A program made the translations under genes and the position numbers. Source: Bacilli bacterium (GTDB taxonomy: Bacteria > Bacillota_I > Bacilli_A > RF39 > UBA660). Taken from it: DNA of 64,000 nucleotides. Location of the stretch: NCBI GenBank assembly GCA_017428495.1, contig JAFRQS010000011.1:74920-138919 (forward strand), in the 5' to 3' direction. Position 1 is the stretch's first letter, and each line of letters starts with the position of its first letter. The notes beneath the pieces were generated by a model that worked only from the letters and a program-made list of their open reading frames with translations, was not told the origin of the DNA and made no database searches. Of this stretch, positions 30,008 to 56,157 are shown one piece after another.

Positions 30008-30648
30008 TAATTCACCATCTCCCCAATATACTCAGTAAAATTAGTAAGATATATTATTCCAACTAACATCAATAATATCATAACTAAATTCAAAAACCAT
30101 TCTTTTTTTAAAACATTTGGTAATTTATCTCTCAATTTATCTAATAAAATAAATACAATAGCTCCAATTGCACCACCAATTATATTTAATATAATATCAT
30201 CTACATCAAACACCCTACCTATAATATTTTGTACAATTTCAATAGAAACAGATGATATAGCAGTAAGAATAACAGCAGGATATACTTTATTTTGATCCAA
30301 ATACGCTGTTACAAATAGCCCAAATGGCATAAATAATAGTATATTACCAACAAAGTTCTTTATAAACATTTTTGAATTCAAACTATATCTAAACATTTCT
30401 TTAAATGGTATATAATTTGATAACCCATAATTATCATCTTGAAATGTAACAATATAGAATAAACTAAGTAAATATATAATAAACAATAGATATGTTAATT
30501 CCTTGTAAAATACAAATTTCTCTTTTTTAGATATAAGATATGCAATTCTAACAGAAGAAAGAATAATAGTAAATATAACTATCATAGTCCATGCTCCTCC
30601 AAATATTTCAAGAATCATACCTTTTATCAATATTTCACTTCCTCTCAA
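30007..30648 (-). CDS. VanZ-family membrane protein
   Basis: 213 aa; multi-TM with VanZ-like motif region YIPFKEMF...NILLFMPFGLF. Confidence 0.55.
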   Translation of the reverse strand: MRGSEILIKGMILEIFGGAWTMIVIFTIILSSVRIAYLISKKEKFVFYKELTYLLFIIYLLSLFYIVTFQDDNYGLSNYIPFKEMFRYSLNSKMFIKNFVGNILLFMPFGLFVTAYLDQNKVYPAVILTAISSVSIEIVQNIIGRVFDVDDIILNIIGGAIGAIVFILLDKLRDKLPNVLKKEWFLNLVMILLMLVGIIYLTNFTEYIGEMVN

Positions 30649-31810
30649 TATCTATCCTTCTTACACTAGTTATATTGGCATATATCTTATAGAATATATC
30701 CATATATATTGTATTACTATTTGAACTATATTTCAATACTTTGTAACTAATTATGTACTCATCTTCATCCAATAATTCTTTCATTTTATTTTTAGAATAC
30801 TCTTTAGCATTTAAAATTGCTTCTGCTTCTGTATATATACCATTAATACTTTTTAATTCATAAATAGTATCACGTGATATTCCAATAGGTAAAATTGCAT
30901 TTTTATATATATATTCCTTACTCACATAACTATTATTAAAACCATTTTTATCAAACAAAATAATACTCTTATTAAATATATTTAAACTAAAAACTTGCTT
31001 CTTATTTCCAGTTTCTTCTTTTGTATCATTAATAAGTGGATATTCTACACTCAATTTATACCACACTTCTCCATATACTTCCCCTGAAGCTTCTACAGTT
31101 TTTTTAATTTCATCATTTAAATAAATATTACCACTAATAATTATGTCCCCTTTTTTTACATAATCATTTATATCCTTAACTTTCATACCACTATTAACTA
31201 CTATTTTTTTTATTACAGCATCTCTTTTAGCTACTATATCCTGAAATTCATAATTATTAGTAATATTATTTATTTTTCTTTCTTCAAGTCTTACCACATA
31301 CTTTGTACCTATTCTTTCAATTTCTAACCACTCTATTTTATCCTTATTATTATCCAATATCTTATTTTTTATTTTTTCTAATTCCTTAAAACTTTTTCTA
31401 AACTGTAATACATTTATTCCATTTTTATTTAATTCATTCATAACAAAATTTCTTGTCTTTTCGCTACTATGACTTATTTCTATAGAAAAGATAATATTAG
31501 TCAAAAAAATAAGAATAACTATTCCAAAAAATAAGGATATTAATAATATTTTATTAAATTTTAATTTATTAATTTTATCTTTTTTACCTCTATAGCTAAT
31601 AATATCAATTTTATTTAAAATACTTAATTTCTTTACTTTATTATAATCACATTCATTTATCTCAACTACTACCTCTTTAAAACTAACCACATTCACACTA
31701 TATATATCTATATTAAGCTTATATAAATTACTTAAAAACCTATCTATATTTTTAGTTTTAATTTTTAATACAATTATATTATTAAGATTATCTAAAAATC
31801 TATTCTTCAT
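30635..31810 (-). CDS. yqfD: sporulation protein YqfD (stage IV sporulation, single-TM)
   Basis: 391 aa, one central TM helix, immediately downstream of yqfC-like gene and upstream of the ybeY block, matching the yqfC-yqfD arrangement of sporeformers. Confidence 0.65.
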   Translation of the reverse strand: MKNRFLDNLNNIIVLKIKTKNIDRFLSNLYKLNIDIYSVNVVSFKEVVVEINECDYNKVKKLSILNKIDIISYRGKKDKINKLKFNKILLISLFFGIVILIFLTNIIFSIEISHSSEKTRNFVMNELNKNGINVLQFRKSFKELEKIKNKILDNNKDKIEWLEIERIGTKYVVRLEERKINNITNNYEFQDIVAKRDAVIKKIVVNSGMKVKDINDYVKKGDIIISGNIYLNDEIKKTVEASGEVYGEVWYKLSVEYPLINDTKEETGNKKQVFSLNIFNKSIILFDKNGFNNSYVSKEYIYKNAILPIGISRDTIYELKSINGIYTEAEAILNAKEYSKNKMKELLDEDEYIISYKVLKYSSNSNTIYMDIFYKIYANITSVRRIDIERK

Positions 31811-32042
31811 TAAAACTAATACTATTTATATCCCCAGATATAAATAATTCATCCTTCTTTAACTTAGATATAACTAATTTATTTCCACTTATAGATATAA
31901 CTTTATATTTAGTATTTACTTTAATACTTTTATCACTAAAATTAGATATACACACATAGTTAATAATATAAATACCAGATTTATATATATGTATTTCTAA
32001 ATCACTCGGATCAATATAGTTCTTTATCCTATCTAAAATCAC
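31800..32042 (-). CDS. yqfC: sporulation protein YqfC
   Basis: 80 aa; pattern ...HIYKSGIYIINYV...ISGNKLVISKL...ELFISGDINSI parallels B. subtilis YqfC. Confidence 0.6.
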   Translation of the reverse strand: MILDRIKNYIDPSDLEIHIYKSGIYIINYVCISNFSDKSIKVNTKYKVISISGNKLVISKLKKDELFISGDINSISFNEE

Positions 32043-32100
32043 AATATCACCTATTAAAATATATGAAAAAAAGACTTCATTAGAAGTCTTAAATAATCAA

Positions 32101-33342
32101 TTAACTGCCCGAAGTAGTGCATGAACTACCTGCACACCAATTTGTAACCCCATTACTTGTAATATGACATCTAGCCTCATTCCACCACTCAGTAGGAACG
32201 TGGCAATATACATCACCATTAGTACATTTCCATATTTCGCCACCTTGTGCATATCTGCAATTAGACTCACCAAATACTTGAGTTGCATGATTAAGATTAT
32301 CAGCTGAATATTTATTAGAAAAACAATTTATATCTGAATCTCCATTACCTCTATATAATATACATATTTCAGGGTCATCATTCCTAGTAAATTCGGTTGT
32401 ATCTCCAGGCCATCTTATAAATACATTTTTATTTAATAAAGAGTAATCTGCTACAGCAGTATTTGATCTTGTAACAAAACTATCAAAAGCATTATCACTT
32501 CGCGTAAGAAATGAAGTCATTTCATCATATACATATGTACCAGTATTTATTCTATCTCCAAAGTATAAACTAGTGCTCTCATTACTACCATCTTCCCATA
32601 TATCATTACTATTACTACATACCTTTGTCGCATGGGAATCATCTTCTGGATATATTTCATCATTGATATCATAACCTAAATCATTATATAATATCCAATT
32701 TTTACATGCAGTCTGATTAGTTACTGTATATGTATAACCCATCCAATAATTATCCATTAAAAATTGTGATGCACTATAATTGGTACCTATATCAGAACTA
32801 TTAGTACATACATTATTTGAATATAATGTTGCATCTGTATCAGTTTCTCCCCATGAAACAAATAGTGACTTTATAGCTGGTTTACATAATGTCTCATTAG
32901 TTACTGCATATACTAAAGAATATTCAAATGTATATAAATATTCTGGGGCATTTGGATCGCCTTGTGTACAACTTATACTATCTTTTGTACCACTACATTT
33001 TATTCCTGCAAATTTACTTCCACTTGCTCCTTTTAATTTTACTGTTGCGACTCCATTTAAATTATATGTAATTGTACAACTTGAATAATTGTCATTTAAT
33101 TTTGCAACATCAGTACATGGTATACTTGTTTCATCATAATTTGGATTTATAGCTTGTTGAGCCAAATAATCTTTTTCTGCATTTGTTGCTATTAATCTTG
33201 CGCTACTTTCCATACTCTTTAATCTTGATTCTTGTATTGTATTCATTATTTGTGGTATTGCTATTATAAGTATTACTGCTAATATTACTATTACTGCTAA
33301 TAACTCTACCAATGTAAAGGCTTTCTTCTTATTCTTTTTCAT
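32101..33342 (-). CDS. large prepilin-type N-terminal domain protein (type IV pilin-like), Cys-rich, two ~65-aa internal modules; paralog of 37115-38830
   Basis: 413 aa; class III leader MKKNKKKA/FTLVELLAVIVILAVILIIAIPQIM (Glu at +5, Ala at -1); first ~130 aa and last ~80 aa conserved with the 571-aa paralog, variable modular middle (Y[AT]VTN..C....[IV]K ... K[IV]C[ST]N repeated). Confidence 0.75.
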   Translation of the reverse strand: MKKNKKKAFTLVELLAVIVILAVILIIAIPQIMNTIQESRLKSMESSARLIATNAEKDYLAQQAINPNYDETSIPCTDVAKLNDNYSSCTITYNLNGVATVKLKGASGSKFAGIKCSGTKDSISCTQGDPNAPEYLYTFEYSLVYAVTNETLCKPAIKSLFVSWGETDTDATLYSNNVCTNSSDIGTNYSASQFLMDNYWMGYTYTVTNQTACKNWILYNDLGYDINDEIYPEDDSHATKVCSNSNDIWEDGSNESTSLYFGDRINTGTYVYDEMTSFLTRSDNAFDSFVTRSNTAVADYSLLNKNVFIRWPGDTTEFTRNDDPEICILYRGNGDSDINCFSNKYSADNLNHATQVFGESNCRYAQGGEIWKCTNGDVYCHVPTEWWNEARCHITSNGVTNWCAGSSCTTSGS

Positions 33343-33385
33343 ATCTTACTCCTATCTTATATCTTTATTATATCATTCTTATATA
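32950..33385. repeat. dispersed direct repeat copy 1 (5' end of pilin-like gene plus promoter), about 85-90% nucleotide identity to 38455-38875
   Basis: Hand alignment of 33001-33342 with 38498-38830 shows long identical runs (e.g. ATTCATTATTTGTGGTATTGCTATTAT, TACTGCTAATATTACTATTACTGCTAATAA) and shared upstream ACTCCT..TATAT..TTTATTATATCA. Confidence 0.7.
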
Positions 33386-33402
33386 TTTTTTTAAACTATA
33401 AA

Positions 33403-33426
33403 TAAAAAAATTAGACATAGTCTAAT
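33403..33426 (-). terminator. rho-independent terminator after yqeY
   Basis: ATTAGAC-ATA-GTCTAAT hairpin overlapping the yqeY stop, A-run on plus (T-run on minus). Confidence 0.45.
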
Positions 33427-33862
33427 TTAATTTGTTTTTTATTATTGAACTAACTAAAGACATATCAGCTTTACCCTTTAATTTTGATGAAGCCTCTTTC
33501 ATAACACTTCCCATATCTTTAATACTAGTAGCATTAACTGTTTTAATTATATGATCAATTATATCAATAATTTTTTCTTCACTTAATTGCTCAGGCATAT
33601 AACTTGATAATATTTTGATTTCTTCATTTGTTTGATCAATTAAATCCTGTCTATTACCTTTTTCAAATTCAACTATTGATTCTTTTCTAGTTTTAATTTG
33701 TTTACCAATTATTACTATTATATCCTCATCTGACACTTTTTCTAATTTCTTATTAATTCTTTCTAAATCAATAGATCCTTTTAACATTCTTAATGTTTGA
33801 AGTCTTAAAGTGTCTTTGGATTTCATTGCTTCTTTAATATCATTAGTTATTCTTTCTAACAT
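33422..33862 (-). CDS. yqeY: GatB/YqeY-domain protein
   Basis: 146 aa; MLERITNDIKEAMKSKDTLRLQTLRMLKGSI matches YqeY family start. Confidence 0.75.
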   Translation of the reverse strand: MLERITNDIKEAMKSKDTLRLQTLRMLKGSIDLERINKKLEKVSDEDIIVIIGKQIKTRKESIVEFEKGNRQDLIDQTNEEIKILSSYMPEQLSEEKIIDIIDHIIKTVNATSIKDMGSVMKEASSKLKGKADMSLVSSIIKNKLN

Positions 33863-33870
33863 ATTATCAC

Positions 33871-34068
33871 CTAATCATAGTTTCTATTTTTTCTATTTTG
33901 TTTTCTACTATTAATAATAGCATTTTTCTTTGCTTCTCTTCTTAATACTCCTGGTTTACTGAAATGTTCCCTTTTCTTCTTTTCAGAGAGAGTACCACTT
34001 TTTGCTACTTGTTGCTTAAATCTCTTAAGTGAATTCTCAAAACTACCTTTTACAACAGTTCTAGTCAT
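33871..34068 (-). CDS. rpsU: 30S ribosomal protein S21
   Basis: 65 aa, basic; LKRFKQQVAKSGTLSEKKKREHFSKP matches the bS21 signature. Confidence 0.85.
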   Translation of the reverse strand: MTRTVVKGSFENSLKRFKQQVAKSGTLSEKKKREHFSKPGVLRREAKKNAIINSRKQNRKNRNYD

Positions 34069-34163
34069 TATTTTATCCCTCCCTCCAACTTAAATTCAAA
34101 TGAATTATACCACCAAATATGATATATTTCAACAATTTTCTTAATAAGACACAAAAAAAAGCA

Positions 34164-34352
34164 CTACTTAGATGCTTCTTCTTTTGATAATACTTTTTTG
34201 CCCTTATAATATCCACATTCAGTACATACTCTATGTGGTCTTATAATAGCTCCACAATTAGAACACTTAGTTGTACCATTTTCTTCTATTTTATAATGAG
34301 TACGACGCATTCTTTTTCTTGTTTTACTTACTTTTCTAAATGGAACTGCCAT
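34164..34352 (-). CDS. rpmF: 50S ribosomal protein L32
   Basis: 62 aa; MAVPFRKVSKTRKRMRRTH and 4-Cys zinc ribbon. Confidence 0.85.
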   Translation of the reverse strand: MAVPFRKVSKTRKRMRRTHYKIEENGTTKCSNCGAIIRPHRVCTECGYYKGKKVLSKEEASK

Positions 34353-34368
34353 GTTATCCCCTCCTCAT

Positions 34369-34806
34369 TTAATCTTCTCTTATGAATCTCCATCCATCTC
34401 CAGATATAGGAGTATCATCAATATCCGCACTTACAACTCTTAATGGGATTTCCAATACAATATTTTGCCATATAATTGAAATAATATCAATAGTATTTTG
34501 ATTTATTTTTACATATTCTTCATCAAAATCATCTTCATTTGATAATTTTAACTCTGTTTTTATATCAAATGGATAATCGACGTCTTTCAATGTAATAGCG
34601 CAAGGAAGTACCATTGTACCTTTAATTTCAAGACTCATACTATATGAAGAATCTGTAACTCTTCTTATATGTGCATTAACATCCACTGGACTTAAATGTC
34701 TTATATCTGTGTTTTCATATAATGATTCATTTAATATAATTGTATCATTATATTCTAATTCATTTGTCAATCTGTTTTGTAATCTAGTTAAATCTAACAT
34801 AATCAC
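34369..34806 (-). CDS. yceD: YceD/DUF177 family protein (upstream of rpmF)
   Basis: 145 aa acidic protein directly upstream of rpmF, the conserved yceD-rpmF pairing. Confidence 0.65.
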   Translation of the reverse strand: MIMLDLTRLQNRLTNELEYNDTIILNESLYENTDIRHLSPVDVNAHIRRVTDSSYSMSLEIKGTMVLPCAITLKDVDYPFDIKTELKLSNEDDFDEEYVKINQNTIDIISIIWQNIVLEIPLRVVSADIDDTPISGDGWRFIRED

Positions 34807-34849
34807 TCACCTAGTAAATTATACTAGTTTTATTATAGAATTGCAAGTT

Positions 34850-35437
34850 TTATTTATCTTTATCCATATTAAATTTCTTAACTTTTAAAGGCTTTTTAAC
34901 TCTAACTGCTGATTTTTCTGTATTAACTATATTTTCATCTAACTCAGGTTCATACAATTTGATTTGCGGATAATATAGTCCATATTGTGATAATTCATAT
35001 GGTGTCGCATCAATCATACCTTCATCCATCATATCTTTAAATAAATCTAAATCTGCTGATATTTCTTCTACATCTGCAAAATCTAATTTTATATTTCCAG
35101 AATAAACATCCTCTTCAGGCTCAATTGGATAACTACCTATAAATTCATGTAAGTACCCATTTTGGTTAACCCATACTGTTCTCAATCCAACATTTACAAG
35201 TACTACCCCGTCTATTGTAACATCATTATCACTAAATATAAGTTTCTTTAATACAAAAATAACACCTTTTGGTATATTCATATTATTAATAGTAATATTA
35301 TCACTAAGCTTCAGTATATATTGCTCTTTATCATCAATAACTTTTCTTTCTACAGCAATCTTTGAACCATTCTTTGTTTTCATTGCAAATCTTTCTGTAC
35401 CTATCATTTCTTCATGTGTCTTCATACCATCACCCAA
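34850..35437 (-). CDS. hypothetical protein
   Basis: 195 aa ORF, no signal peptide, acidic middle and basic tail; no family recognised. Confidence 0.4.
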   Translation of the reverse strand: MGDGMKTHEEMIGTERFAMKTKNGSKIAVERKVIDDKEQYILKLSDNITINNMNIPKGVIFVLKKLIFSDNDVTIDGVVLVNVGLRTVWVNQNGYLHEFIGSYPIEPEEDVYSGNIKLDFADVEEISADLDLFKDMMDEGMIDATPYELSQYGLYYPQIKLYEPELDENIVNTEKSAVRVKKPLKVKKFNMDKDK

Positions 35438-35503
35438 TTAAATTTTAACATATAACTTCCAATAATTCTACAATTTATGTTAAAATTAATGTGAGGTGTA
35501 ATT

Positions 35504-35989
35504 ATGAGAATTGATAAAATTAACTATTATTTAGATATTGCAGAAGCTGCATTAGAAAGAAGTACATGCATAAGAAGAAATTTTGGTGCAATAATTGTTA
35601 AAAATGATGAGATAATTTCTACTGGATATAATGGTGCTCCAAGAGGTAGAAAAAATTGTACTGATTTAGGATATTGTATGAGGGAAAAATTAAAAATTCC
35701 AAGAGGAGAAAGATATGAACTATGTAGAAGTGTTCATGGAGAAGAAAATGCTATAATAAGTGCATCAAGAAGAGATATGATAGGTGCTGATTTATATTTG
35801 GTTGGTAAAAATTATAATGATGGTTCATATGTTAAAGATGCAAGACCTTGCTCAATGTGTAAAAAAACTATAATTAATTCGGGAATTAATAAAGTATATA
35901 TTAGAAATGATAAAGAGAATTATACTGTAATCGATGTACAAGATTTTATAGATAATGATGAATCATTAGAAGGAACTTTAGGTTATTAA
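35504..35989 (+). CDS. dCMP deaminase (ComEB-like)
   Basis: CMP/dCMP deaminase zinc motifs HGEENAI and PCSMCKK. Confidence 0.8.
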   Translation: MRIDKINYYLDIAEAALERSTCIRRNFGAIIVKNDEIISTGYNGAPRGRKNCTDLGYCMREKLKIPRGERYELCRSVHGEENAIISASRRDMIGADLYLVGKNYNDGSYVKDARPCSMCKKTIINSGINKVYIRNDKENYTVIDVQDFIDNDESLEGTLGY

Positions 35990-37101
35990 TGAATGTTATT
36001 GGAATAATTGCAGAATATAATCCATTCCATAATGGACATTTATATCAAATAAATAAAATAAAAGAATTATATAAAGATTCTATTATAATTGTGATAGTTA
36101 ATGGGAATTTTACTCAAAGAGGAGATATTTCAATAATAAATAAATGGGATAAAGCTAGAATACTACTAAATCATAATGTAGATTTAGTAATTGAACTTCC
36201 TACATTTTATGGAATAAATAATGCTGATATATTTAGCAAAGGAGCATTAAAAATACTAAATGAATTAAAGATAGATACTCTAGTATTTGGTACAGAAAGA
36301 GATAACTTAGATGATTTTTATAAACTAATTAAATGTAAAAAAACTAATGAATACAAGAAATTATTAAAAGAATATTTAAATAAAGGTTATTCTTATCCAA
36401 AAGCATCATTTGAATCTTTAAAGAAATTGACAAATATAGAATTATGTACTCCAAATGATATACTTGCACTATCATATATTGAAGAAATAGAAAATAACAA
36501 ATATAATATTAAACCATTAAATATTAAAAGAACAGCTGATTATCATTCAAAAGAATTAACAAATAGTGCTACATCTATTAGAGAAGCATTAAAAAATAAT
36601 ATTGATATATCTAAATATGTACCTAGAGATGTTATAAAATATATAAGTAATGTATCTTTAAATGATTATTTTGATTTAATAAAATATAAAATATTATCTA
36701 GTGATGATCTAACAATATATCATGATATTAAAGAAGGAATAGATTCTAGAATCAAAAAATATATATTAGAATCAAATAATTTAGATGAATTAATAAATTT
36801 AGTTAAAACAAAAAGATATACATATAATAGGATAAAAAGAATATTACTATATATATTGTTAGATATTAAGAAAGATATACAAATAAATGATTATATTAGA
36901 TTACTAGGATTTAATGACAAAGGTAAAAAATATATTAAAAGTATTAAAAAAGAAATTAATATACCATTAATATCTAATTATAGTAATAATAAAGATTTAT
37001 TAGAATTTGAATATAAAGTAAATACTATATATTCATTAAAACAAACTAACATAAATGAATATATAAAAAAAGAATTAAATAATCCAATAGAGATTAAATA
37101 A
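35989..37101 (+). CDS. tmcAL: tRNA(Met) cytidine acetate ligase TmcAL (YlbM/UPF0348 nucleotidyltransferase)
   Basis: 370 aa; N-terminus MNVIGIIAEYNPFHNGHLYQ matches YlbM/TmcAL HxGH-type motif. Confidence 0.75.
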   Translation: MNVIGIIAEYNPFHNGHLYQINKIKELYKDSIIIVIVNGNFTQRGDISIINKWDKARILLNHNVDLVIELPTFYGINNADIFSKGALKILNELKIDTLVFGTERDNLDDFYKLIKCKKTNEYKKLLKEYLNKGYSYPKASFESLKKLTNIELCTPNDILALSYIEEIENNKYNIKPLNIKRTADYHSKELTNSATSIREALKNNIDISKYVPRDVIKYISNVSLNDYFDLIKYKILSSDDLTIYHDIKEGIDSRIKKYILESNNLDELINLVKTKRYTYNRIKRILLYILLDIKKDIQINDYIRLLGFNDKGKKYIKSIKKEINIPLISNYSNNKDLLEFEYKVNTIYSLKQTNINEYIKKELNNPIEIK

Positions 37102-37114
37102 TTCTTTTTTATTA

Positions 37115-38830
37115 TTAGCTTATCCATTCACCGCATCCACCATTTATATTACATTCTTTTCCAGAATGATATCCTTCTTGGCAATAAAATTCATTACCAC
37201 TAGATAAACTTGTTCTATTAACACGGCACCTAAAACGCCTTCCTCCAGTATTTTGTTCACATACAATTGTATTATTCCATTCAGCAATAACATTGCAGTT
37301 ACTTTCCCCAAATACATTCTTCAATTGATCATCAATTGTATTATCAAAAGTAAAACAATTAAAATCATTATTAGTATTACCTTTATATTTAATGCAAACA
37401 GCTTTATCAGTTGTAGAATCAAATTCATCAGTATCTCCAGGCCATCTTATAAATACAATAGAATTAATATCATTAGGATTTGTATAAGTTTCAGTACCTT
37501 GATATACTCTAGTTGAGAATTGATTATATGCATTTTCCCTATTTAAAAATGCATATAAATTGTATTCATTACCAATACTGTCAGCAAACCATTCACTTGT
37601 TGTTAAAACTATACCTCCAGTATCATATCCATTACCATTACAAACACTAGTAGCAATTGCATTTGCCTCACTTTCTAAATAGCCCCATTTATTTATATAA
37701 TCATCTTTTATTTTAGTTTCACACTCCGATTTATTAGTCACTATATAATTATATAAGTATCTTTCATTATCAATAAACCAATCATCAGCTGTAGATTCTG
37801 TATATTCATCAATATTATTAGTATTGCTACATATTTTTTGAGCACTTAATTCAGCGCTTGAAACATCGTAGTTAAAGTTATTTATCAAATCTCCTTTCAC
37901 AAATGTTTTACAAGCGTTTGCATCAGTTACAGTATATAAATCTACTCCATCAGTTGTAGTTTTAGTTGTAAATGAACTTATACTAGAACTGCTAATACCA
38001 TTGCTAGACACTCCTGTAAAAAACCAATCACTTGTAGTAGTATATCTTATTGTATCTAAATTATTACATACTTTATAAGCTGTTGAAGCAGCATAATAAT
38101 CAGGTTCTCCATTATTCATTTCTTTTTGTTTAATAAATGGTAAACAACTTGATTTGTTAGTTACAGTATAGAAATCAGCACCATAGCGATTTATTTTACT
38201 TACAAAAGAACTTATTTCTGAATAAGTAAATAATCCATTTGCAATTGATTCATCAATATAATCAGATGCTGTAAAAGCTAGGCTTGATTTTGTGCATATT
38301 TTATAAGCATCTGAAGTAAGTCGATAATTACTTTTGTTATAATGCAATTCTTCAATTCTTTTTACAGCATTAACACAATTTGCTTCATTTGTTATTGTAT
38401 ATGTATATAATTCTCTAGGAATTCCAAATGAATACACATATTCTGATACATTATCTCTCTGTATACAATTCATTTCATCTTTTGTACCTGTACATGTTAT
38501 TCCTGCAAACTTACTGCCACTTGCTCCTTTTAATTTTATTGTTGCTGTGCCATTACTATTATATGTAATTGTACAACTCGAATAATCATCATTTAATTTT
38601 GCAACATCAGTACATGGTATACTTGTTGCATTATAATTTTGATTTACTGCTTGCTGACTTAAATAGTCTTTTTCTGCATTTGTTGCTATTAGTTTTGCAC
38701 TACTTTCCATACTTTTTAATCTTGTAGATTTAATTGTATTCATTATTTGTGGTATTGCTATTATTAGTATTACTGCTAATATTACTATTACTGCTAATAA
38801 TTCTACTAATGTAAATCCTTTCTTTTTCAT
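37115..38830 (-). CDS. large prepilin-type N-terminal domain protein (type IV pilin-like), Cys-rich, four ~65-aa internal modules; paralog of 32101-33342
   Basis: 571 aa; canonical class III leader MKKKG/FTLVELLAVIVILAVILIIAIPQIM; four repeats of TVTN..C...IK / KIC.N modules; conserved C-terminal block IVFIRWPGDTDEF...VFGESNC shared with the paralog. Confidence 0.75.
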   Translation of the reverse strand: MKKKGFTLVELLAVIVILAVILIIAIPQIMNTIKSTRLKSMESSAKLIATNAEKDYLSQQAVNQNYNATSIPCTDVAKLNDDYSSCTITYNSNGTATIKLKGASGSKFAGITCTGTKDEMNCIQRDNVSEYVYSFGIPRELYTYTITNEANCVNAVKRIEELHYNKSNYRLTSDAYKICTKSSLAFTASDYIDESIANGLFTYSEISSFVSKINRYGADFYTVTNKSSCLPFIKQKEMNNGEPDYYAASTAYKVCNNLDTIRYTTTSDWFFTGVSSNGISSSSISSFTTKTTTDGVDLYTVTDANACKTFVKGDLINNFNYDVSSAELSAQKICSNTNNIDEYTESTADDWFIDNERYLYNYIVTNKSECETKIKDDYINKWGYLESEANAIATSVCNGNGYDTGGIVLTTSEWFADSIGNEYNLYAFLNRENAYNQFSTRVYQGTETYTNPNDINSIVFIRWPGDTDEFDSTTDKAVCIKYKGNTNNDFNCFTFDNTIDDQLKNVFGESNCNVIAEWNNTIVCEQNTGGRRFRCRVNRTSLSSGNEFYCQEGYHSGKECNINGGCGEWIS

Positions 38831-38875
38831 AATACACTCCTCATATTCTATAATTTTATTATATCACATAAAAAA
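38455..38875. repeat. dispersed direct repeat copy 2 (5' end of pilin-like gene plus promoter)
   Basis: See copy 1 (32950-33385); same orientation, about 5.5 kb apart, flanking the yqeY-rpsU-rpmF-yceD-comEB-tmcAL block. Confidence 0.7.
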
Positions 38876-38941
38876 AGTAATTATATTTCAAAATAATAAA
38901 AATACAAATCTAGACAACTAAATTTGTATTTTTATTAAATA

Positions 38942-45792: not shown

Positions 45793-46053
45793 TTATTTTG
45801 TTTCTATAATAAGTTTAATAGCTGTTCTTTCCTCACCATCTATCATGATATCAGAAAAAGCAGGGATGCATATTAAATTTTTACCTGTAGGTGCAACAAA
45901 TCCTCTTGCAATAGCAATTCCTTTTATAGCTTGATTTAATGCTCCTGCACCTATAGCTTGAATTTCAACACTACTCTTTTCTTTTAAAACATTAGCCAGT
46001 GCTCCAGCTACTTTATTTGCATCTGATTTAGATGATACTTTCAATATTTCCAT
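45793..46053 (-). CDS. spoVS: stage V sporulation protein S
   Basis: MEILKVSSKSDANKVAGALANVLKEKSSVEIQAIGAGALNQAIKGIAIARGF matches SpoVS; 86 aa from MEILK. Confidence 0.85.
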   Translation of the reverse strand: MEILKVSSKSDANKVAGALANVLKEKSSVEIQAIGAGALNQAIKGIAIARGFVAPTGKNLICIPAFSDIMIDGEERTAIKLIIETK

Positions 46054-46099
46054 ATTTATTCCTCCTGAATTAATATATGAAAAAAATAACAATTTAGAA

Positions 46100-48375: not shown

Positions 48376-48735
48376 CTATGTACGATGAAAACCAGAAATA
48401 TAATGGCCATCATTATATATACTATAACTTACATATCCTTTAATTTCAGAATTATCTCTAGGATCAAGTATCGGACAATCTAAATATTTATTTTCACATA
48501 AATCATCAATATCAATGCTTACAGAGTCTCCAACTACATTCAATTCCTCATATAAATCAGGATTATCAAGCATATAATTTTGAGCAACTCTTTCTATTTC
48601 ATTCACTATATCAGTATATAATGCATTTTTCTTTTTATTATATATATCTAATACATTAGGTACAGCAATCATAGCTAACATACCAAGAATTGCTATTACA
48701 GCAATTAATTCTATTAAAGTAAATCCCTTTTTCAT
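48376..48735 (-). CDS. small type IV pilin/pseudopilin (prepilin-type N-terminal cleavage/methylation domain)
   Basis: 119 aa; canonical leader MKKG/FTLIELIAVIAILGMLAMIAVPNV with Glu+5. Confidence 0.7.
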   Translation of the reverse strand: MKKGFTLIELIAVIAILGMLAMIAVPNVLDIYNKKKNALYTDIVNEIERVAQNYMLDNPDLYEELNVVGDSVSIDIDDLCENKYLDCPILDPRDNSEIKGYVSYSIYNDGHYISGFHRT

Positions 48736-49835: not shown

Positions 49836-49866
49836 AAAAAAAAGAATTATTATTTAAATAATTCTT
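49836..49866 (-). terminator. rho-independent terminator at end of the 5-gene surface-protein cluster
   Basis: AAGAATTATT-ATTTA-AATAATTCTT hairpin overlapping the stop of the 313-aa gene with A/T runs. Confidence 0.5.
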
Positions 49867-50779
49867 TATCATAAAAGCCTTTAAATTTAATTTTACTTTT
49901 ATCATTAAATGTTATAACTATAATATTATTTTCCAACTCACTTATATTAGATACATACTTATTATATTTCTTAATAGTATCACCTTCAACATATAACATT
50001 TCATTATCTGAGGTTATAATAAATTCAGTAGGAACATTTTTAAATCCACTAATATTATTACCCATACCAACTAATATAATATTTTTAACTTTAACATCTT
50101 TATTATCCTTTTTAAATACTTCACCATTAATTTTAGATATTGACATATCAGAATATAATATATATTCATTATTTATGTACATCATATCTTTATCATAAGG
50201 AAATAAGGTATATACATCATACAATTTGTTTTTTGCGGTTAATACTACAAAACTCATATGATTTATATTAATGTAACTTTTTACTTTTAAATTTGTAAAA
50301 TTAACAATTTTTTCATTGGGAATATCAATTTTATTGATATATAACTCATTTAAATTGTCATTATTCAACACAAACTTATATAAATTTCCATCTTCAGTTA
50401 TGCCAAAAGCATTTAATCCTTTTTCGAAAAACATACTAGCATCATATAATGTATTAAATTTTACATTCTCAAGTACTTCCTTATTACTTGAATTCAAACT
50501 TATATGTAAATGCTTTTCATCATCAATATACAATTTGCCAACATTATTATCATTAATAACAGTAAATTCAATTTTATTGATGACATTATAAAATATATTA
50601 TCTTTATAAGACTCATTATATTCAATTGAATTAATGTGTTTTATTCCCTCATACTGAAAAGTAAAACTTTTAGAATCACTTTTATCAGATTTCATAAATT
50701 TGTAATATGATAAGTATCCTACAAATACTAAAAACATTATAACAAATACAATCAACACTATCCTTAACTTTTTATTCAT
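49850..50779 (-). CDS. membrane-anchored hypothetical protein (N-terminal TM, extracytoplasmic body)
   Basis: about 309 aa from MNKKLRIVLIVFVIMFLVFVGYL; RBS GGGTGATTAT upstream. Confidence 0.55.
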   Translation of the reverse strand: MNKKLRIVLIVFVIMFLVFVGYLSYYKFMKSDKSDSKSFTFQYEGIKHINSIEYNESYKDNIFYNVINKIEFTVINDNNVGKLYIDDEKHLHISLNSSNKEVLENVKFNTLYDASMFFEKGLNAFGITEDGNLYKFVLNNDNLNELYINKIDIPNEKIVNFTNLKVKSYININHMSFVVLTAKNKLYDVYTLFPYDKDMMYINNEYILYSDMSISKINGEVFKKDNKDVKVKNIILVGMGNNISGFKNVPTEFIITSDNEMLYVEGDTIKKYNKYVSNISELENNIIVITFNDKSKIKFKGFYDKELFK

Positions 50780-50802
50780 ATAATCACCCATTACTTTATA
50801 TC

Positions 50803-51657
50803 TTAACCCATTTTCTTAACAGAGGCTTCTTTAGCCATATTTAATTCTTCTGTAGTAACTCTCATTGATTCAGGAATCCAATTTAAATATATATGTACCA
50901 TATCATTGTGAGAGTAATAACCTCTTCCACCTTCTTTTCCAAATGGAAAAAACTCAAACATATATTCATCTTCTTCATTTGTTAATTCTCTATCATAATA
51001 TTCAATCCAAAAATTGGCCGCCATAACAACGTTATCTACCAAACGTAGTTGTATATCATTGTTACAAAAATATGGATGAATACCTTCAAACTCTACTACT
51101 TCATGATTCATAGCATTCCAAGTTAATGGTCCAAAATCTTCACCTGTAGTGTGATAAGTAAATAATTCCTCATTAGTAAATAAATCCTTAAATTTATATA
51201 TATTTTCATTTGGAGTATTATATACATATCCAAACATTACTTTTGGTTTACCTTCAATGAAGAAACAAGCTGAGAAATAAAGATTTGAATCATTTATTTC
51301 ATCGTCATCATATGTTTCATATTTTTTCATTTCTTCAGCTTCTTCTTCTTCTGAAAGTCTTTTAAATACCAATTCACTTGAATCATCAATAACTGGTTCT
51401 TCATTAATTTCAATATTTTCATTTTCAACAATTGGTTCTATAGTTGGTTGTGGAGTAGGTTCTGGGGTTGCTTTAATAATAGGATCAACGGATGGAGAAG
51501 GTATAACAGTTTCAATAGGTGTTACCGTTTCCTCTATAATATCCGTTTTATCTAAAGAATAATTGTCACATCCAACTAAAATACTAGATGCCAATAATAC
51601 TGCTGCAATTTGCGTTGCTATTTTGCCATTATACTTATTATTTCTCTGTAATTTCAT
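50803..51657 (-). CDS. hypothetical lipoprotein with Pro/Thr-rich linker
   Basis: 284 aa; lipobox SSILVGC; linker TPIETVIPSPSVDPIIKATPEPTPQPTIEPI. Confidence 0.55.
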   Translation of the reverse strand: MKLQRNNKYNGKIATQIAAVLLASSILVGCDNYSLDKTDIIEETVTPIETVIPSPSVDPIIKATPEPTPQPTIEPIVENENIEINEEPVIDDSSELVFKRLSEEEEAEEMKKYETYDDDEINDSNLYFSACFFIEGKPKVMFGYVYNTPNENIYKFKDLFTNEELFTYHTTGEDFGPLTWNAMNHEVVEFEGIHPYFCNNDIQLRLVDNVVMAANFWIEYYDRELTNEEDEYMFEFFPFGKEGGRGYYSHNDMVHIYLNWIPESMRVTTEELNMAKEASVKKMG

Positions 51658-51719
51658 AATGCCTCCTTAATTTGAATAAATATATTATATGCAATAATTT
51701 ATATTTGTCAATTTAATTG

Positions 51720-54071
51720 TTAACAACCTCCTGTTTCTGTATACGTAGCTGTAACAATGTCTTCTCGTTTTGAAGGATCTGCATAATATGAGACTCTTGT
51801 AAAAACGCAGTGTGTTTCTGTTGTTATAGTTCTCTGATGATTAGAACATATACCTTTTTTTACTGTATAATATGTACTACCTATATAACGTATATTTTTT
51901 TCATTTTTAGAGCAATTAGTCTCATGCCAACATGTTTTATAACCACATTGAATTGCATCTGCTTTATTTTCACAAGCTGTGCATGAATCCGCCCCACAAG
52001 AATCACATGCATTATAGCCACATATACTAGCATCTGTTACATCACCACACCATGCACACGTATTATATTCTATACATTTGTTTTTATTATTTGGATCATA
52101 TTTTTTGCAACCGCATGCTCCACAACTCCTAGGCTTACATGTAGCTGCACCACATCTTGAACATTTTTTATATCCACAATGTTCCACATCATTTCCATAA
52201 AATTCACACACCTCACATGTATCCGCACCACAACTCCAATGTTCACTTTTAACCCTATCGCAGTCTGGTTTTTGCACTTCTTCATTAAAATCATAGTGAC
52301 ATGATTCACCATTGTAACTACTTGAAGTTCCAGGGCCATCATCTGGAGGTTGAGTTTCACAATCTGATTTATAGCATCCTTGTCCATCACCTGTTGCTGA
52401 TGCAACCTGTCCATCTCCACAAGTTGCTTGTGATTTAGCTGTTTCTTCACTTGAATATGGATAATCTCCTGAACATACACAATCTACTTTATAACATCCT
52501 TCTCCATTATTAGAACATTGTTTTACTTGATTTGATGATGAACATGATATTGAATTCTTTGCATCATCTTCACTTATATGTGGATAGCTTGCTGGACATG
52601 CTTTTCCTTTTACAATTAATGTACAAGTACCAGTTTTTGTAGAATCCACTTTTGATGTTACTGTTACTGTTATTTTTTGATCTATTGGTGATAATCCATT
52701 ATTTCCTTTAACTTCTCCTGTTTCTTCATTTATTGTTGCATATGTTGTATCTGATAAACTCCATTTTACATCAGTCTTTGTAGAATTCTTTGGTGTATAA
52801 ACTTTCTCCATTTGCCCTATACCATTATATTCTATCTCTAAATTTTTACATCCTAATGTTTCAGGTATTCCATCCCATACTGTTACTTTACATGTTGATG
52901 TCTGTCCTCTTGTTGTTTTTACCCTTATTGTTACTTCCTTTGTACCTGTTATATTCTGCGCTGTTATTTGTGCCTTTGATAAACAATTCGAATTTGTATT
53001 ATTTAACTCACATGTTTCTGGTGGGTTTGAATATTGTATTGTTAAAGCACTTGGATCGCTACTTGTCCATTCCAACTTTCTATTTGCTGCATTTGCAGGT
53101 ACATATTGTGGATGTAATGTTACTTTTGTTCCAGAAGCTATTTTTATTCCTTCTGCTGGACATACAACATAACTTGAATTATCTGCACTTGGTTCATTTG
53201 GGTTTGTTTCTGGACTTAAATCATTTGGATTCTTTGGTACCAATACTTCTATATCTGTTGTACATACTTGTTTTCTTACTCTTTCTTTTATACTTTCATT
53301 TATTGTTCTTACATCTGTACTTTCACTAAATGTCCATGTATAAATATATTCATTACCTGATGATACTGGATTTGCTGTTACTATTCTTGTCTTTTCACTA
53401 CTCCATTTTCCACATTCACATATTGCATATCTTGCTGTTCTTTCTTTATCTCTTGGGGCTTCCTCATCTTGACATATTCCTATTGGTAAATTTGATTCTC
53501 CCCATCCTAAAAAGCTTATATCTCCTGGTATACAATCCATCTCTTCATCTGATATGTCTGATGCACACCTATTCTCTCCACTTGATGAATCTATTTCTAC
53601 TTTTGTTCCAAACTCTTGTCTTATTGTATTACATTCTTCTGCTGTCTTATCTTCACACAAAAAATCTATTACTTCATCTATTTTATATTTTGTCTCTATA
53701 ACACCATCTACTCGATTTACTAATCCAAATTCTTCTCCTCTTAATGATGTTACTCCACTTCTTATTCTTAATGATATCTTAGGTGGTACTTCATTTAAAT
53801 CTTCTACTATTATCTTATAGTCACCTATTGTTACATTTTGAGCAAATCTTCTTGTTAAATTCTCTATAAATTTATCTTCTGCTATTTTCATGTTTCCTGT
53901 TGTTCTATAATATTGCAAATCTATTGCATCATATGCTGCCGCTTGTGTTGTTTCTTTTATTAAATAATATACTCTATCATTATCTACTGTTACATTTTGA
54001 AATAAATTTACTACTAATATTCCAAATAATCCTAGTACTACTATTAGTACTCCCCATATCGCTTCTTTCAT
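51720..54071 (-). CDS. large surface protein: N-terminal membrane anchor, two Big_2-like Ig domains, C-terminal Cys-rich CGY-x2-C repeat region
   Basis: 783 aa; N-term hydrophobic MKEAIWGVLIVVLGLFGILVVNLF; Big_2-like segments (VVCPAEGIKIASGTKVTLHPQYVPANAANRKLEWTSSDPSALTIQ; KVYTPKNSTKTDVKWSLSDTTYATINEETGEVKG); C-terminal about 150 aa with about 35 Cys including HCGYKKCSRCG, ICGYNACDSCG, QCGYKTCWHETNC. Confidence 0.6.
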   Translation of the reverse strand: MKEAIWGVLIVVLGLFGILVVNLFQNVTVDNDRVYYLIKETTQAAAYDAIDLQYYRTTGNMKIAEDKFIENLTRRFAQNVTIGDYKIIVEDLNEVPPKISLRIRSGVTSLRGEEFGLVNRVDGVIETKYKIDEVIDFLCEDKTAEECNTIRQEFGTKVEIDSSSGENRCASDISDEEMDCIPGDISFLGWGESNLPIGICQDEEAPRDKERTARYAICECGKWSSEKTRIVTANPVSSGNEYIYTWTFSESTDVRTINESIKERVRKQVCTTDIEVLVPKNPNDLSPETNPNEPSADNSSYVVCPAEGIKIASGTKVTLHPQYVPANAANRKLEWTSSDPSALTIQYSNPPETCELNNTNSNCLSKAQITAQNITGTKEVTIRVKTTRGQTSTCKVTVWDGIPETLGCKNLEIEYNGIGQMEKVYTPKNSTKTDVKWSLSDTTYATINEETGEVKGNNGLSPIDQKITVTVTSKVDSTKTGTCTLIVKGKACPASYPHISEDDAKNSISCSSSNQVKQCSNNGEGCYKVDCVCSGDYPYSSEETAKSQATCGDGQVASATGDGQGCYKSDCETQPPDDGPGTSSSYNGESCHYDFNEEVQKPDCDRVKSEHWSCGADTCEVCEFYGNDVEHCGYKKCSRCGAATCKPRSCGACGCKKYDPNNKNKCIEYNTCAWCGDVTDASICGYNACDSCGADSCTACENKADAIQCGYKTCWHETNCSKNEKNIRYIGSTYYTVKKGICSNHQRTITTETHCVFTRVSYYADPSKREDIVTATYTETGGC

Positions 54072-54075
54072 ATTA

Positions 54076-55362
54076 TCACTTCCTATCTATGATATCTGGA
54101 TTTGCAATAATAAATTTGCTCTTATTCATCTCATTAATATTAAATGTATCATAAGGATGATTTTTATTATACTCTCTTACTCTTCCTATTTTACTTCTAT
54201 CTAAAGTTATAACAAATCTTTCCATTGTTGATAAATTACTACTAGTAGAAGTTATATATTTATTTACTAATGTCTTTCCATCTGGAGTAAGACCACTCCA
54301 GTTAGCTGAAGGCTCTCTATTTGGAAATGGATTATTAACATCAATTATTCTATATTGAAATGCCTGGCCACCATATTTATCATAATTTTCATCTGTTTCT
54401 GAACCTGGTTTTGTCACAGGGAATGATAAATTTTTTACTTTATATGAACAATTTACATTTAAATTCCATACATCTCCACCTGCTATTAAATTATTACCTA
54501 AATTTCTAGCAGTTAATACTAATGAATATCCTCTATCAGTAGGATCTGATGCAACTGGCCTTGTATACTCATTAAATGATGTAAAATACTTATCTCCAGC
54601 ATTACACCTATCATATCTATATGTAGATTCTATATTTCCAGTATTTAACTCCAAAAATGTATCAGCCATTGTGTATTTACCATTTAACATAACTGTTTCA
54701 TTCCAACTTTTAATTGTTTTATTACTAAGTTTACAATCATAAGTCGCTTCATCAAAATTACATGCCATAGGAGTTACATTTATCTCATCCATATCTACAA
54801 CTTTTGAATATTCACCCATTTGAGAAAAATGATAAGGAATAGTTTCTACATTCTGAGAAGTAGATACATTTAACTCTACATTTCCATTAAATTTATACTT
54901 ATGAATATTTGATTCATCATCTGATGTAAATTCATCACAAGCTTTTTTATTTTCATAATAATTAACTATTTCTCTTCTTTTGGTTTCTTTTTCTTCACCT
55001 GATAAACTTTTATATTCATTTACCAATTCTTTTATTTTAGATTCATATTGAGTATATTTATATTCAGCAGTACAATTTCTCTTTCCACTAGCATATAATG
55101 GATAATTAAAACCAGTTCCTGCTAATACTCTTTTTATAGGATCAACTGAAAACAATATTTCTTCTTTACATTTAATAGTACAAACATCATTTTTTAGTAC
55201 TTCAATTTCATTCTCAGTTCTAAATGTAGTAACCGTACTTTTACTTGCATCACATGTAATCTCTCTACTATTTGTATTAACCGTATTTATAACTGGATCA
55301 CATGTAGCAGCAAAAGTTACAACTGGTAACAATAACGCAAATAATAATAATTTCTTTTTCAT
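54076..55362 (-). CDS. secreted Cys-containing hypothetical protein
   Basis: 428 aa; signal peptide MKKKLLLFALLLPVVTFAA; 4-nt gap/overlap coupling to flanking genes. Confidence 0.55.
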   Translation of the reverse strand: MKKKLLLFALLLPVVTFAATCDPVINTVNTNSREITCDASKSTVTTFRTENEIEVLKNDVCTIKCKEEILFSVDPIKRVLAGTGFNYPLYASGKRNCTAEYKYTQYESKIKELVNEYKSLSGEEKETKRREIVNYYENKKACDEFTSDDESNIHKYKFNGNVELNVSTSQNVETIPYHFSQMGEYSKVVDMDEINVTPMACNFDEATYDCKLSNKTIKSWNETVMLNGKYTMADTFLELNTGNIESTYRYDRCNAGDKYFTSFNEYTRPVASDPTDRGYSLVLTARNLGNNLIAGGDVWNLNVNCSYKVKNLSFPVTKPGSETDENYDKYGGQAFQYRIIDVNNPFPNREPSANWSGLTPDGKTLVNKYITSTSSNLSTMERFVITLDRSKIGRVREYNKNHPYDTFNINEMNKSKFIIANPDIIDRK

Positions 55363-56021
55363 AATATACCTCGATTCTTTGACCTTCTTTTCATAATTAT
55401 TCTTAATAAAACCAATAATATAATTGTTAAACTAACAATTATCAAATGTCTATGTTCATATATATATCCAAGCACATCTATATTGGTTTCATCATTCTCT
55501 TGTGGTTTAATTTCTGTTTCTTCTCTTTTATTTAAACTTTCTATATACTCATTCATCTTTTTTTCAAATTCTTTTTCACTCAAATTAACATTAGAATTTT
55601 CTTTACATAAAAAGTAATTTTCATATCCTTTGCACAAATCACTTTTTGAATATTTATTATAATATGGAACATTTATTACCTTTGTAAGTATTTTATATCC
55701 TTCACAATAATTATTATTGGATGCATATATTATAACTTGTATTTTACTTCCAGGTGTTAATCCATCAATAACATTACTTGAGTATTTTTTTCCATTACTA
55801 TCTGCCAAATACATATGCTTTGTTATATTGTAAAATATCACTTTATATGTAACTTTATCATTTTCAATATTTTTACTAAGTCTATATACAACATCATTAG
55901 CATCACTTCTAAGTGCTGTTTTAAAGCTATTTGTACATCTTGAATCTATTACATCATATTTTGCTAATGTAGTAATTGGTATAAATAGTAACATTAATAG
56001 CAAATAACGCAATTTCTTCAA
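55359..56021 (-). CDS. type I membrane protein (signal peptide, about 150-aa ectodomain, C-terminal TM and basic tail)
   Basis: 220 aa; N-term MKKLRYLLLMLLFIPITTLA, C-term LIIVSLTIILLVLLRIIMKRRSKNRGIL. Confidence 0.55.
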   Translation of the reverse strand: MKKLRYLLLMLLFIPITTLAKYDVIDSRCTNSFKTALRSDANDVVYRLSKNIENDKVTYKVIFYNITKHMYLADSNGKKYSSNVIDGLTPGSKIQVIIYASNNNYCEGYKILTKVINVPYYNKYSKSDLCKGYENYFLCKENSNVNLSEKEFEKKMNEYIESLNKREETEIKPQENDETNIDVLGYIYEHRHLIIVSLTIILLVLLRIIMKRRSKNRGIL

Positions 56022-56106
56022 TATATCACCTACTTATTCTTACAAATAATATAATACCAAAAAAACACATATTTTTAAAGTGCTTTTTTAAATATTATTT
56101 AGAAAT

Positions 56107-56135
56107 TTGACTTGTTCCCTAAATTATGTTAGTAT
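56107..56135 (+). promoter_or_regulatory. sigma-A-type promoter with extended -10 for SH3-like gene 1
   Basis: TTGACT -17 nt- TGtTAGTAT, then RBS AGGAGGGG 6 nt before ATG 56158. Confidence 0.5.
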
Positions 56136-56157
56136 ATAAGCCAATTTAGGAGGGGTT

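Follow-up and report, generated by a model that had tools for sequence, protein, structure and literature searches.

Genes A and B, two large pilin-like genes in the 64-kb window (the whole stretch of DNA analysed), probably belong to a multigene family of modular type IV pilins whose members are dispersed in the genome. Members of this family share their front ends, while their back ends differ and are swapped; a dedicated device for switching from A to B is not what the arrangement suggests. Swapping of the back ends of pilin paralogues between strains by recombination is a known kind of arrangement. The host is an uncultured spore-forming Bacilli bacterium of about 25% GC from a gut or rumen metagenome. 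The relevant features are as follows.

32968 to 33375, minus strand: repeat copy 1, front of gene A, with a TG-extended -10, 5'UTR/RBS and pilin module codons 1-125
38465 to 38866, minus strand: repeat copy 2, front of gene B, with the same elements as copy 1, codons 1-122
32101 to 33342, minus strand: gene A, predicted 413-aa modular type IV pilin (MBQ6282206.1), leader MKKNKKKA followed by FTLVELL
37115 to 38830, minus strand: gene B, predicted 571-aa modular type IV pilin (MBQ6282214.1), leader MKKKG followed by FTLVELL
33367 to 33375, minus strand: A promoter, TGATATAAT, extended -10; -35-like TTTAAA at 33390-33395, RBS AGGAG at 33349-33353
38858 to 38866, minus strand: B promoter, TGATATAAT, extended -10; RBS GAGGAG at 38837-38842
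32473 to 32925, minus strand: A cargo part 1, two helical two-Cys modules, residues ~140-290
32104 to 32472, minus strand: A cargo part 2, Cys-rich C-terminal domain (FIRWPGD...), residues ~291-413
37511 to 38428, minus strand: B cargo part 1, four helical two-Cys modules
37118 to 37510, minus strand: B cargo part 2, Cys-rich C-terminal domain
32071 to 32090, minus strand: intrinsic terminator of A
33404 to 33425, minus strand: yqeY terminator hairpin and T-run, directly upstream of the A promoter
38894 to 38937, minus strand: hairpin after an rluA-like gene, 20-nt arms, 95% complementary, adjoining the B promoter upstream

The two repeat copies, both on the minus strand and 5.5 kb apart, are the 5' ends of ORFs 32101-33342 (A) and 37115-38830 (B). 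BLAST aligns them over 454 nt at 82.6% (E about 6e-131). A repeat search returns a 300-nt piece that is 85% identical (32956-33255 against 38453-38752) and two additional pieces, 33227-33319/38724-38816 and 33329-33375/38820-38866 (47 nt, 70%). In a codon alignment, the front ends are 86.4% identical over 375 nt; the longest identical run is 39 nt. The first-pass annotation had reported a direct repeat here with 5' ends about 85-90% identical. Both the repeat and the figure hold (86.4% over the 375 coding nt), but "near-identical" is too strong a term for 13-14% divergence. Its statement that the promoter regions also align is borne out for about 45 nt only, comprising the TG-extended -10, a short 5'UTR and the RBS. 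Identity drops sharply past codon ~125, and the end of the repeat is the exact end of the pilin module. The remainders of the genes, described earlier as divergent, do collapse in identity past this point; however, the 3' parts of A and B carry a homologous Cys-rich domain (~35% amino acid identity), including a 37-nt nucleotide match at 89% (32389-32425/37421-37457).

Each repeat copy encodes an entire type IV pilin module of ~125 codons, made up of a class III signal peptide, a hydrophobic alpha-1 helix and a beta-sheet head. PF07963 (N_methyl) scores 29.1 and 28.1 bits in the two genes (cut-off 21.2), and TIGR02532 is above its cut-off. The B leader, MKKKG followed by FTLVELLAVIVILAVILIIAIPQ, has the features of a class III signal peptide: it is short and basic, ends in Gly at -1, and is followed by Phe at +1, Glu at +5 and a hydrophobic stretch of ~20 residues. 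Position -1 in A is Ala, not Gly. Residues 6-144 match full-length S. sanguinis PilE1 (8pfb_G; phmmer E 0.0015), and the long alpha-1 helix on an antiparallel beta-sheet corresponds to the alpha-beta pilin fold. In the predicted structure, a low-confidence linker (131-141) is followed by ~270 residues folded as separate domains, among which the two-Cys modules of A (motif Y-x-Y-x-V-T-N-x3-C ... C-x-N) have a pLDDT of 85-92. As modelled, A and B thus have the make-up of modular pilins, in which a pilin module is joined to an extra module that is not specific to type IV pili.

Neither Pfam nor the solved folds gave a match to the cargo of A or B. An exhaustive search of 1.84 billion proteins with the last 129 residues of A found eight representatives at E<=1e-3, and a word-indexed search with A cargo found P0046 as its sole match; sequences this rare and divergent do not allow a function to be inferred for the cargo. 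It may serve as a surface-displayed binding module, and A and B may be assembled into a type IV filament. Within the 64-kb window there is no pilB/C/D/M or other type IV pilus machinery.

Modular type IV pilins are known from Streptococcus sanguinis, which has PilB and PilC; BspA-type LRR (IPR026906/PF13306) is among the commonest architectures of such pilins (Raynaud et al. 2021, PMC8179133). Like PilB and PilC, A and B combine a small N-terminal class III pilin module, a short linker and a bulky extra module. Like the modular pilins of that study, they occur several per genome, with relatives that carry BspA-type LRR cargo. Unlike PilB/PilC, their cargo (helical two-Cys modules and a Cys-rich domain) has no Pfam family or solved fold; they are solitary, scattered among housekeeping operons and outside any pil locus; and the paralogues have a common core promoter and 81-94% nucleotide identity in the module.

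Pilin modules of this type head more than 1000 proteins of related MAGs at 70-87% amino acid identity. Among 1158 homologues, the sole part in common is the first 21-25% of B, again at 70-87%. Cargo in relatives with the same head includes helical two-Cys modules, DUF285/BspA LRR (PF03382, PF13306), Flg_new (PF09479) and Hint. The host genome has at least three paralogues and probably six or more. The third, locus C, lies after gyrA in the same MAG as A and B and is interrupted by a stop codon; three further paralogues are found around rpsF-ssb-rpsR on a contig from the sample that also yielded L086. The best match in a scan of GTDB genomes, 66% on a 2-kb contig, was not a close relative, and these genomes served only for a distant test of within-genome against between-genome likeness. 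A phage-borne origin was considered and dropped because the phage collection gave no match.

The identity of the front ends can be explained in part by constraint. An old duplication without recombination, in which the module was held by purifying selection and AT-biased codons only, would account for an overall dN/dS of ~0.3 in the module, for a dN of 0.015 in alpha1-N and for the 70-87% amino acid identity of modules across many contigs. AT-biased codons alone predict a codon identity of ~60%. An exact match to a 33-nt alpha1-N probe is found in distant pilins too; the identity of alpha1-N therefore owes much to codon bias, and was rejected as evidence of recent conversion. Against these points stands an excess of synonymous identity that holds for the head alone (z 3.8) and also with pilin-specific codon usage (z 4.6). 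At conserved residues of the module, 86 of 104 codons are identical where 62-65 are expected (z 4.6-5.2), while in the conserved C-terminal block of the two genes the count is as expected (21 of 29 against 20-21; z 0.1-0.3). Divergence is not uniform along the genes, since synonymous sites are unsaturated in the module and saturated in the common C-terminal block. Because the codon excess is seen in the module and not in the C-terminal block, the front ends are younger in ancestry than the back ends. This supports the view that identity confined to the 5' end does not come from protein constraint alone.

Comparison with a sister species also counts against such a duplication. The post-gyrA pilin of that species (L091), matched to locus C by position alone, differs from it with a dN of 0.395, compared with 0.089 for gyrA (dS 0.78); A, B and C differ among themselves by only 0.07-0.11. 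The head is thus fast between species and yet alike among paralogues. Strain-level mosaics with a breakpoint within the module are a further objection, and the duplication reading is unlikely overall. Among 52 pilin heads from 11 GTDB genomes, 42 are closest to another head of their own genome, against a permutation mean of 5.8. In CATOOY, the pilin next to smc shares 82% identity with its own paralogue and 27-30% with A/B. Judged from these sequences, modules cluster by genome and not by chromosomal position. This clustering could also come from recent lineage-specific duplication with rapid divergence or shuffling of cargo, without conversion; recent duplication and cargo shuffling give patterns similar to those of concerted evolution. 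Three signatures of conversion were seen: paralogues that are more alike than positional orthologues, a regional synonymous deficit, and clustered substitutions that match a paralogue. The PHI recombination test on 12 modules was marginal (p 0.04) and is not relied on.

Differences between strains, all drawn from short-read metagenome contigs, point to exchange of cargo. In L083, whose flanks are about 98% identical to those of A, the same position is occupied by a 352-aa pilin whose head differs and whose cargo is unrelated. The 5' breakpoint with the window lies in the alpha1-N coding stretch; the whole A cargo (32102-32966) is replaced by unrelated sequence, and homology restarts at the A stop codon, just upstream of the terminator. 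The tail of B, its last ~190 nt (37115-37305), is likewise replaced and hypervariable between strains. Locus C contains a clustered patch of substitutions matching B/A (p ~0.007), probably a short conversion tract in this third paralogue. Together, the differences in head, cargo and tail and the C patch support recombination and cassette exchange on an evolutionary scale. A second sample, L002, lacks 41 nt at the A promoter (33360-33400).

The first-pass annotation had taken identity confined to the 5' end as a sign of ongoing gene conversion or cassette exchange; exchange between strains, on an evolutionary scale, is upheld, but ongoing conversion between A and B is not. Ongoing and possibly programmed switching, with the repeats as active recombination substrates, would fit the 5' limit of the identity, the strain-level replacement of cargo at position A and the resemblance of the stop-interrupted locus C to a silent copy. 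It is nonetheless very unlikely. Module dS among A, B and C is 0.31-0.37, and the A-B value (0.33-0.35) is roughly 3-13 times the housekeeping dS between strains (0.025-0.096). The pair shares no identical run beyond 39 nt and is not the closest in the family, as A-B identity is 86.7% and that of B to other alleles or paralogues is 88-91%. Between strains, the B 5' module is 98% constant; its sole clustered change is unique to the window strain and is not A-like. Variants in module number, which had been suggested as something to look for, were not found: all six B orthologues (569-574 aa) have four modules.

The signals of a phase-variation-like switch, as had been proposed, are also absent. 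Each of A, B, C and 10 relatives has the -10 element, RBS, ATG and full 5' module, with the core promoter and 5'UTR conserved among these 13 family members; none is a promoterless silent cassette lacking the conserved 5' region. The only inverted repeats at the A and B promoters are terminator hairpins of upstream genes, so invertible-promoter repeats are missing. No homopolymer of >=8 or SSR is present in A, B and the 150 nt upstream, and no G4 motif (G3+N1-7 x4) on either strand of the whole 64-kb window. Neisseria pilE/pilS is similar in its conserved 5' and variable 3' regions, its several chromosomal copies and the movement of variable sequence by recombination. However, pilS copies lack a promoter and the conserved 5' end, whereas every copy here is a complete gene of the expressed type, equipped with a promoter, a start codon and a 5' module. 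In Neisseria, short tracts are transferred at high frequency into a single expression locus in a G4-dependent manner; here, exchange is seen between strains only and covers head and cargo as a whole.

Concerted evolution is found in the Mycoplasma vlp/vsa lipoproteins and Helicobacter hop/bab, surface-protein families with conserved 5' ends. The pilin family resembles these in its common promoter and signal-peptide region and variable 3' region, and probably in chimeras between paralogues; it differs in that their switching is usually driven by SSRs or an invertase, neither of which was found here.

In the preferred reading of a family with shared front ends and swapped back ends, the front end is a family-wide unit composed of an extended -10, a ~25-nt 5'UTR with RBS and a ~125-codon pilin module. 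The module would act as a carrier under purifying selection because it has to suit a single prepilin peptidase and a single filament; AT-biased codon usage would further raise its nucleotide identity. Occasional homologous recombination would keep the front ends of paralogues alike, by concerted evolution or re-use of the module, while the cargo behind it would diverge freely and be exchanged as cassettes. In the putative mechanism of exchange, the first crossover would fall within the near-invariant alpha1-N/5' stretch and the second at the 3' end of the gene or in flanking housekeeping DNA.

If this is true, abundant uncultured Bacilli of the rumen and gut diversify the display of their type IV filaments by retaining one assembly-competent pilin module with a small promoter and exchanging the cargo behind it, which includes domains without a known family and a tip hypervariable between strains. 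The idea of modular pilins, so far applied to single genes, would then extend to a multigene family that recombines. Diversifying selection would be indicated for surface interactions, be it with the host, feed particles, phage or neighbours. A bolder reading, tentative and rather unlikely, is that promoter and pilin module form a portable landing pad at several chromosomal expression sites, among which adhesin-like cargo is shuffled within the population. Such sites would often lie beside housekeeping or ribosomal-protein operons, and frequent recombination between them would yield hybrid or junction contigs such as L085 and L118. If true, a monoderm gut bacterium would diversify its pilus tips by means of a distributed cassette system.

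Between the repeat copies lies a housekeeping block, whose previously named genes (yqeY, rpsU, rpmF, yceD, the dCMP deaminase gene and tmcAL) are confirmed.

33422 to 37101, mixed strands: intervening housekeeping block, seven genes
33422 to 33862, minus strand: yqeY
33871 to 34068, minus strand: rpsU
34164 to 34352, minus strand: rpmF
34369 to 34806, minus strand: yceD
34850 to 35437, minus strand: 195-aa ORF without a family
35504 to 35989, plus strand: dCMP deaminase
35989 to 37101, plus strand: tmcAL

The repeats had been regarded as a substrate for deletion of this essential block; with 13% divergence and a longest identical run of 39 nt, the pair is a poor one. Pilin repeats interrupt short-read assemblies and can give rise to chimeric contigs, so caution is needed with MAG gene order around such loci. 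Contigs L082, L084, L002 and L105 break at or near the A/B genes, and in two others different contexts meet at a pilin gene: L085 runs gyrA-[C leader/B body]-tmcAL and L118 runs uvrC-racemase-[pilin]-yabP. Both may be chimeric. L085 was rejected as a real recombinant, since the sequences of B and C are identical over roughly 70-85 nt where the switch occurs, which can mislead a short-read assembler. These breaks and junctions would fit collapse or duplication of a repeat during metagenome assembly; as an explanation of the A-B pair itself this is hardly credible, because the copies differ at 13% of sites and the order A-block-B recurs in independent assemblies from different samples (L001, L083, L105).

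A minor observation concerns the first gene of the block: yqeY appears mosaic in L093.

The window has a GC content of ~25%, and most of its genes lie on the minus strand. A repeat search returned one strong direct repeat within 28-46 kb (32956-33255 vs 38453-38752; 300 nt, 85%; BLAST of the copies, E ~6e-131). Shorter collinear pieces carry it on to 33375/38866, and there is a separate match of 37 nt at 89% (32389-32425/37421-37457). Each copy forms the 5' end of a modular type IV pilin gene, A or B:

32101-33342, minus strand: gene A, 413 aa, 5' end is a repeat copy (MBQ6282206.1)
37115-38830, minus strand: gene B, 571 aa, 5' end is a repeat copy (MBQ6282214.1)
Between the copies: yqeY, rpsU, rpmF, yceD, an unassigned 195-aa ORF, dCMP deaminase gene, tmcAL

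Gene A sits between yqeY and yqfC, inside the conserved rpsU-yqeY…yqfC-yqfD-ybeY-dgkA-cdd-era-recO block. In global alignment, A and B share 39-48 identities per 50 nt from their start codons to ~32960/38456 and no meaningful similarity beyond. Identity is thus confined to the 5' module (~125 codons; signal peptide, alpha-1 helix and beta-sheet head), as the first-pass annotation proposed. The repeat is where that annotation placed it; its description as near-identical is too strong for 86.4% codon-aligned identity over 375 nt (longest identical run 39 nt). On the best-supported interpretation, a recombining modular pilin family has the repeat as its conserved carrier and expression unit. The similarity of the copies would reflect strong constraint on the protein, biased codon usage and occasional recombination between paralogues or strains, while the cargo behind the module would be swapped as a cassette.

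Both N-termini consist of a class III (prepilin) signal peptide followed by a hydrophobic helix (PF07963, TIGR02532), and B residues 6-144 can be aligned with the whole of S. sanguinis PilE1 (8pfb_G; E 0.0015). The AlphaFold model of A (mean pLDDT 74.6) falls into four parts:

Up to residue 127: 55-residue helix and five strands
Residues 131-141: disordered linker
Residues 144-290: helical units, confidently predicted
C-terminal domain: beta-rich, lower confidence

This C-terminal domain of A is seldom found: a search of 1.84 billion proteins gave 8 representatives at E<=1e-3.

A search with B returned 1158 proteins. Apart from strain orthologues, the homologues match the first 21-25% of B alone (70-87% identity) and continue into unrelated cargo. 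One cargo type has the same two-Cys units as B, in one to four copies; a member on contig L120 has none of these helical units and carries a FIRWPG domain directly behind the pilin module. Cargo types two and three are undescribed; others comprise DUF285/BspA-like repeats (PF03382), LRR_5 with Flg_new (PF13306, PF09479) and a Hint domain. The same architecture, a pilin module with extra cargo, has been described for S. sanguinis PilB/PilC and reported as widespread, with BspA-type LRR cargo among the commonest forms (PMC8179133). A and B belong to kinds already known, namely modular type IV pilins and multigene families of surface proteins whose 5' ends are conserved; noteworthy are the cargo, which is undescribed, the replacement of cassettes between strains and the part that such repeats may play in rearrangements or mis-assemblies.

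The window belongs to an NCBI MAG labelled "Bacilli bacterium", and a third paralogue, C (MBQ6282996.1), lies directly 3' of gyrB-gyrA in that MAG. Three more same-module pilins flank rpsF-ssb-rpsR (L120:2060-7281, on a 160-kb contig from the sample of L086). In distant relatives, pilin genes are also solitary amid housekeeping operons: they follow rpmF, smc or efp, or precede yabP/yqfD. Ribosomal-protein and housekeeping operons (rpmF/rpsU, rpsF-ssb-rpsR, gyrA, smc, efp) are recurrent neighbours. A search of a phage collection found no relative.

Upstream of the start codons, similarity between A and B spans just ~45 nt: TGATATAAT (33367-33375/38858-38866), a short leader and the RBS. The core promoter and 5'UTR are common to 13 family members: G-x-TATAATAAAA-x-TATA…(G/A)ATAGGAG-N6-ATG. 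In L002, a contig from another sample, a 41-nt deletion (33360-33400) takes out the TG-extended -10 element; gene A is identical apart from this and has the yqeY terminator and RBS alone in front of it. To judge from this, the allele may be naturally silenced.

The A-B module has dS 0.33-0.35 and dN 0.10 (alpha1-N dN 0.015). The same codon is used at 86/104 conserved module residues, against 62-65 expected under the genome's codon bias (z 5.2 under housekeeping codon usage and 4.6 under that of pilins; 3.8 when the head is taken by itself). In the conserved C-terminal block the count is 21/29 against 20-21 expected (z 0.1-0.3). Judged by this excess, present in the module and absent from the C-terminal block, the two ends of A and B have different ages. 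The identity in alpha1-N reflects codon bias, since an exact 33-nt string from it is also found in distant pilins. The PHI recombination test was marginal (p 0.04).

By their sequence distances, modules cluster by genome and not by chromosomal position. While gyrA has dS 0.78 and dN 0.089 to the sister species (L091), the L091 pilin 3' of gyrA has dN 0.395 to C, compared with 0.07-0.11 among A, B and C. Across 11 GTDB genomes, the nearest neighbour of a pilin head lies in its own genome for 42 of the 52 heads (permutation mean 5.8); one smc-adjacent pilin shares 82% identity with its own paralogue but only 27-30% with A/B. One GTDB genome pair does retain clear orthologues. Twelve close modules are 81-94% identical pairwise, except strain or allele duplicates at 98-99%; at 86.7%, the A-B pair is nothing special among them.

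Four contigs from other samples, with flanks 97-99% identical to the window, were used to compare strains. In one, L083, the pilin at position A (P0004, 352 aa) has a different head and carries unrelated cargo. Identity between L083 and the window is at least ~92%, mostly 95-100%, across yqeY and the promoter; it is 93% for the leader plus alpha1-N (33349-33230) and about 84% from there to 32967. None remains over 32966-32102, and homology returns precisely with the stop codon. Two or more other head variants occupy position A on partial contigs. L093:3961-4660 matches L083 at 97% identity across the 3' portion of yqeY, the promoter of A and the 5' end of the pilin gene. No nucleotide similarity was detected further upstream, where rpsU is absent, and YqeY overall is 77% identical (aa); on this pattern L093 would be either a mosaic or a chimera.

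B is 98-99% constant across six strains (569-574 aa). All six orthologues keep four modules. Between strains otherwise 98-99% identical, the last ~190 nt of B (37115-37305; ~60 codons, Cys-rich tip) are replaced, while the extreme C-terminal motif GYHSGK-x-CNI-x-G-x-CGEW is kept.

These replacements at position A and in the B tail bear out recombination and cassette exchange at the evolutionary and population scale. Ongoing A-B conversion, also proposed in the first-pass annotation, lacks support: A and B have diverged about 3-13 times as far as strains have (housekeeping dS to L083, 0.025-0.096), and B has no A-derived tracts. A phase-variation-like switch is likewise disfavoured, as promoterless cassettes, invertible repeats, SSRs, homopolymers and G4 motifs were looked for and none was found. 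Homologous recombination depends on sequence identity; at 13% divergence, the A-B pair would be a poor substrate for RecA-mediated deletion of the essential block.

C has been inactivated twice, independently, in two lineages: in one, seen in four contigs, codon 107 has changed from TCA to TAA, and in the other a 1-nt deletion lies about ten codons upstream. Two alleles were compared:

L086:10001-11326: C allele of the same MAG as the window
L119:3001-4325: C allele

Six of their nine substitutions are crowded into a 66-nt stretch (p ~0.007), and one allele agrees with B/A at four of the six sites, a pattern suggestive of a short conversion tract. Two contigs bring separate chromosomal contexts together at a pilin gene: L085:4857-6581 joins gyrA-[C leader/B body]-tmcAL, and L118 joins uvrC-racemase-[pilin]-yabP-yqfD (pilin 5322-6371, minus strand; uvrC/racemase 6447-8937). 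Both may be assembly chimeras, since B and C are identical over roughly 70-85 nt at the switch point; either the module in common was the site of real rearrangement, or short-read assembly produced the junctions.

No pilus assembly genes (pilB/pilC/pilD-type) were found anywhere in the 64-kb window. It encodes a 119-aa prepilin-type protein (48376-48735, minus strand; PF07963, weak ComGC/GspG-like N-terminus) flanked by a Mur ligase gene and a 284-aa ORF. A series of ORFs, mostly on the minus strand (49850-58324; 313, 284, 428, 220, 161, 181, 125 and 187 aa), gave no significant Pfam/NCBIfam family, the 220- and 181-aa ORFs having weak sub-threshold Pfam matches only; amid the series lies a 783-aa protein that carries DUF5411 and a Big_2 domain. 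From the sporulation and germination genes in the window (30635-32042, 618-4145 and 45793-46092: yabP/yqfC-like, yqfD, gerA/gerAC/spore permease, spoVS), the MAG comes from a spore-former.
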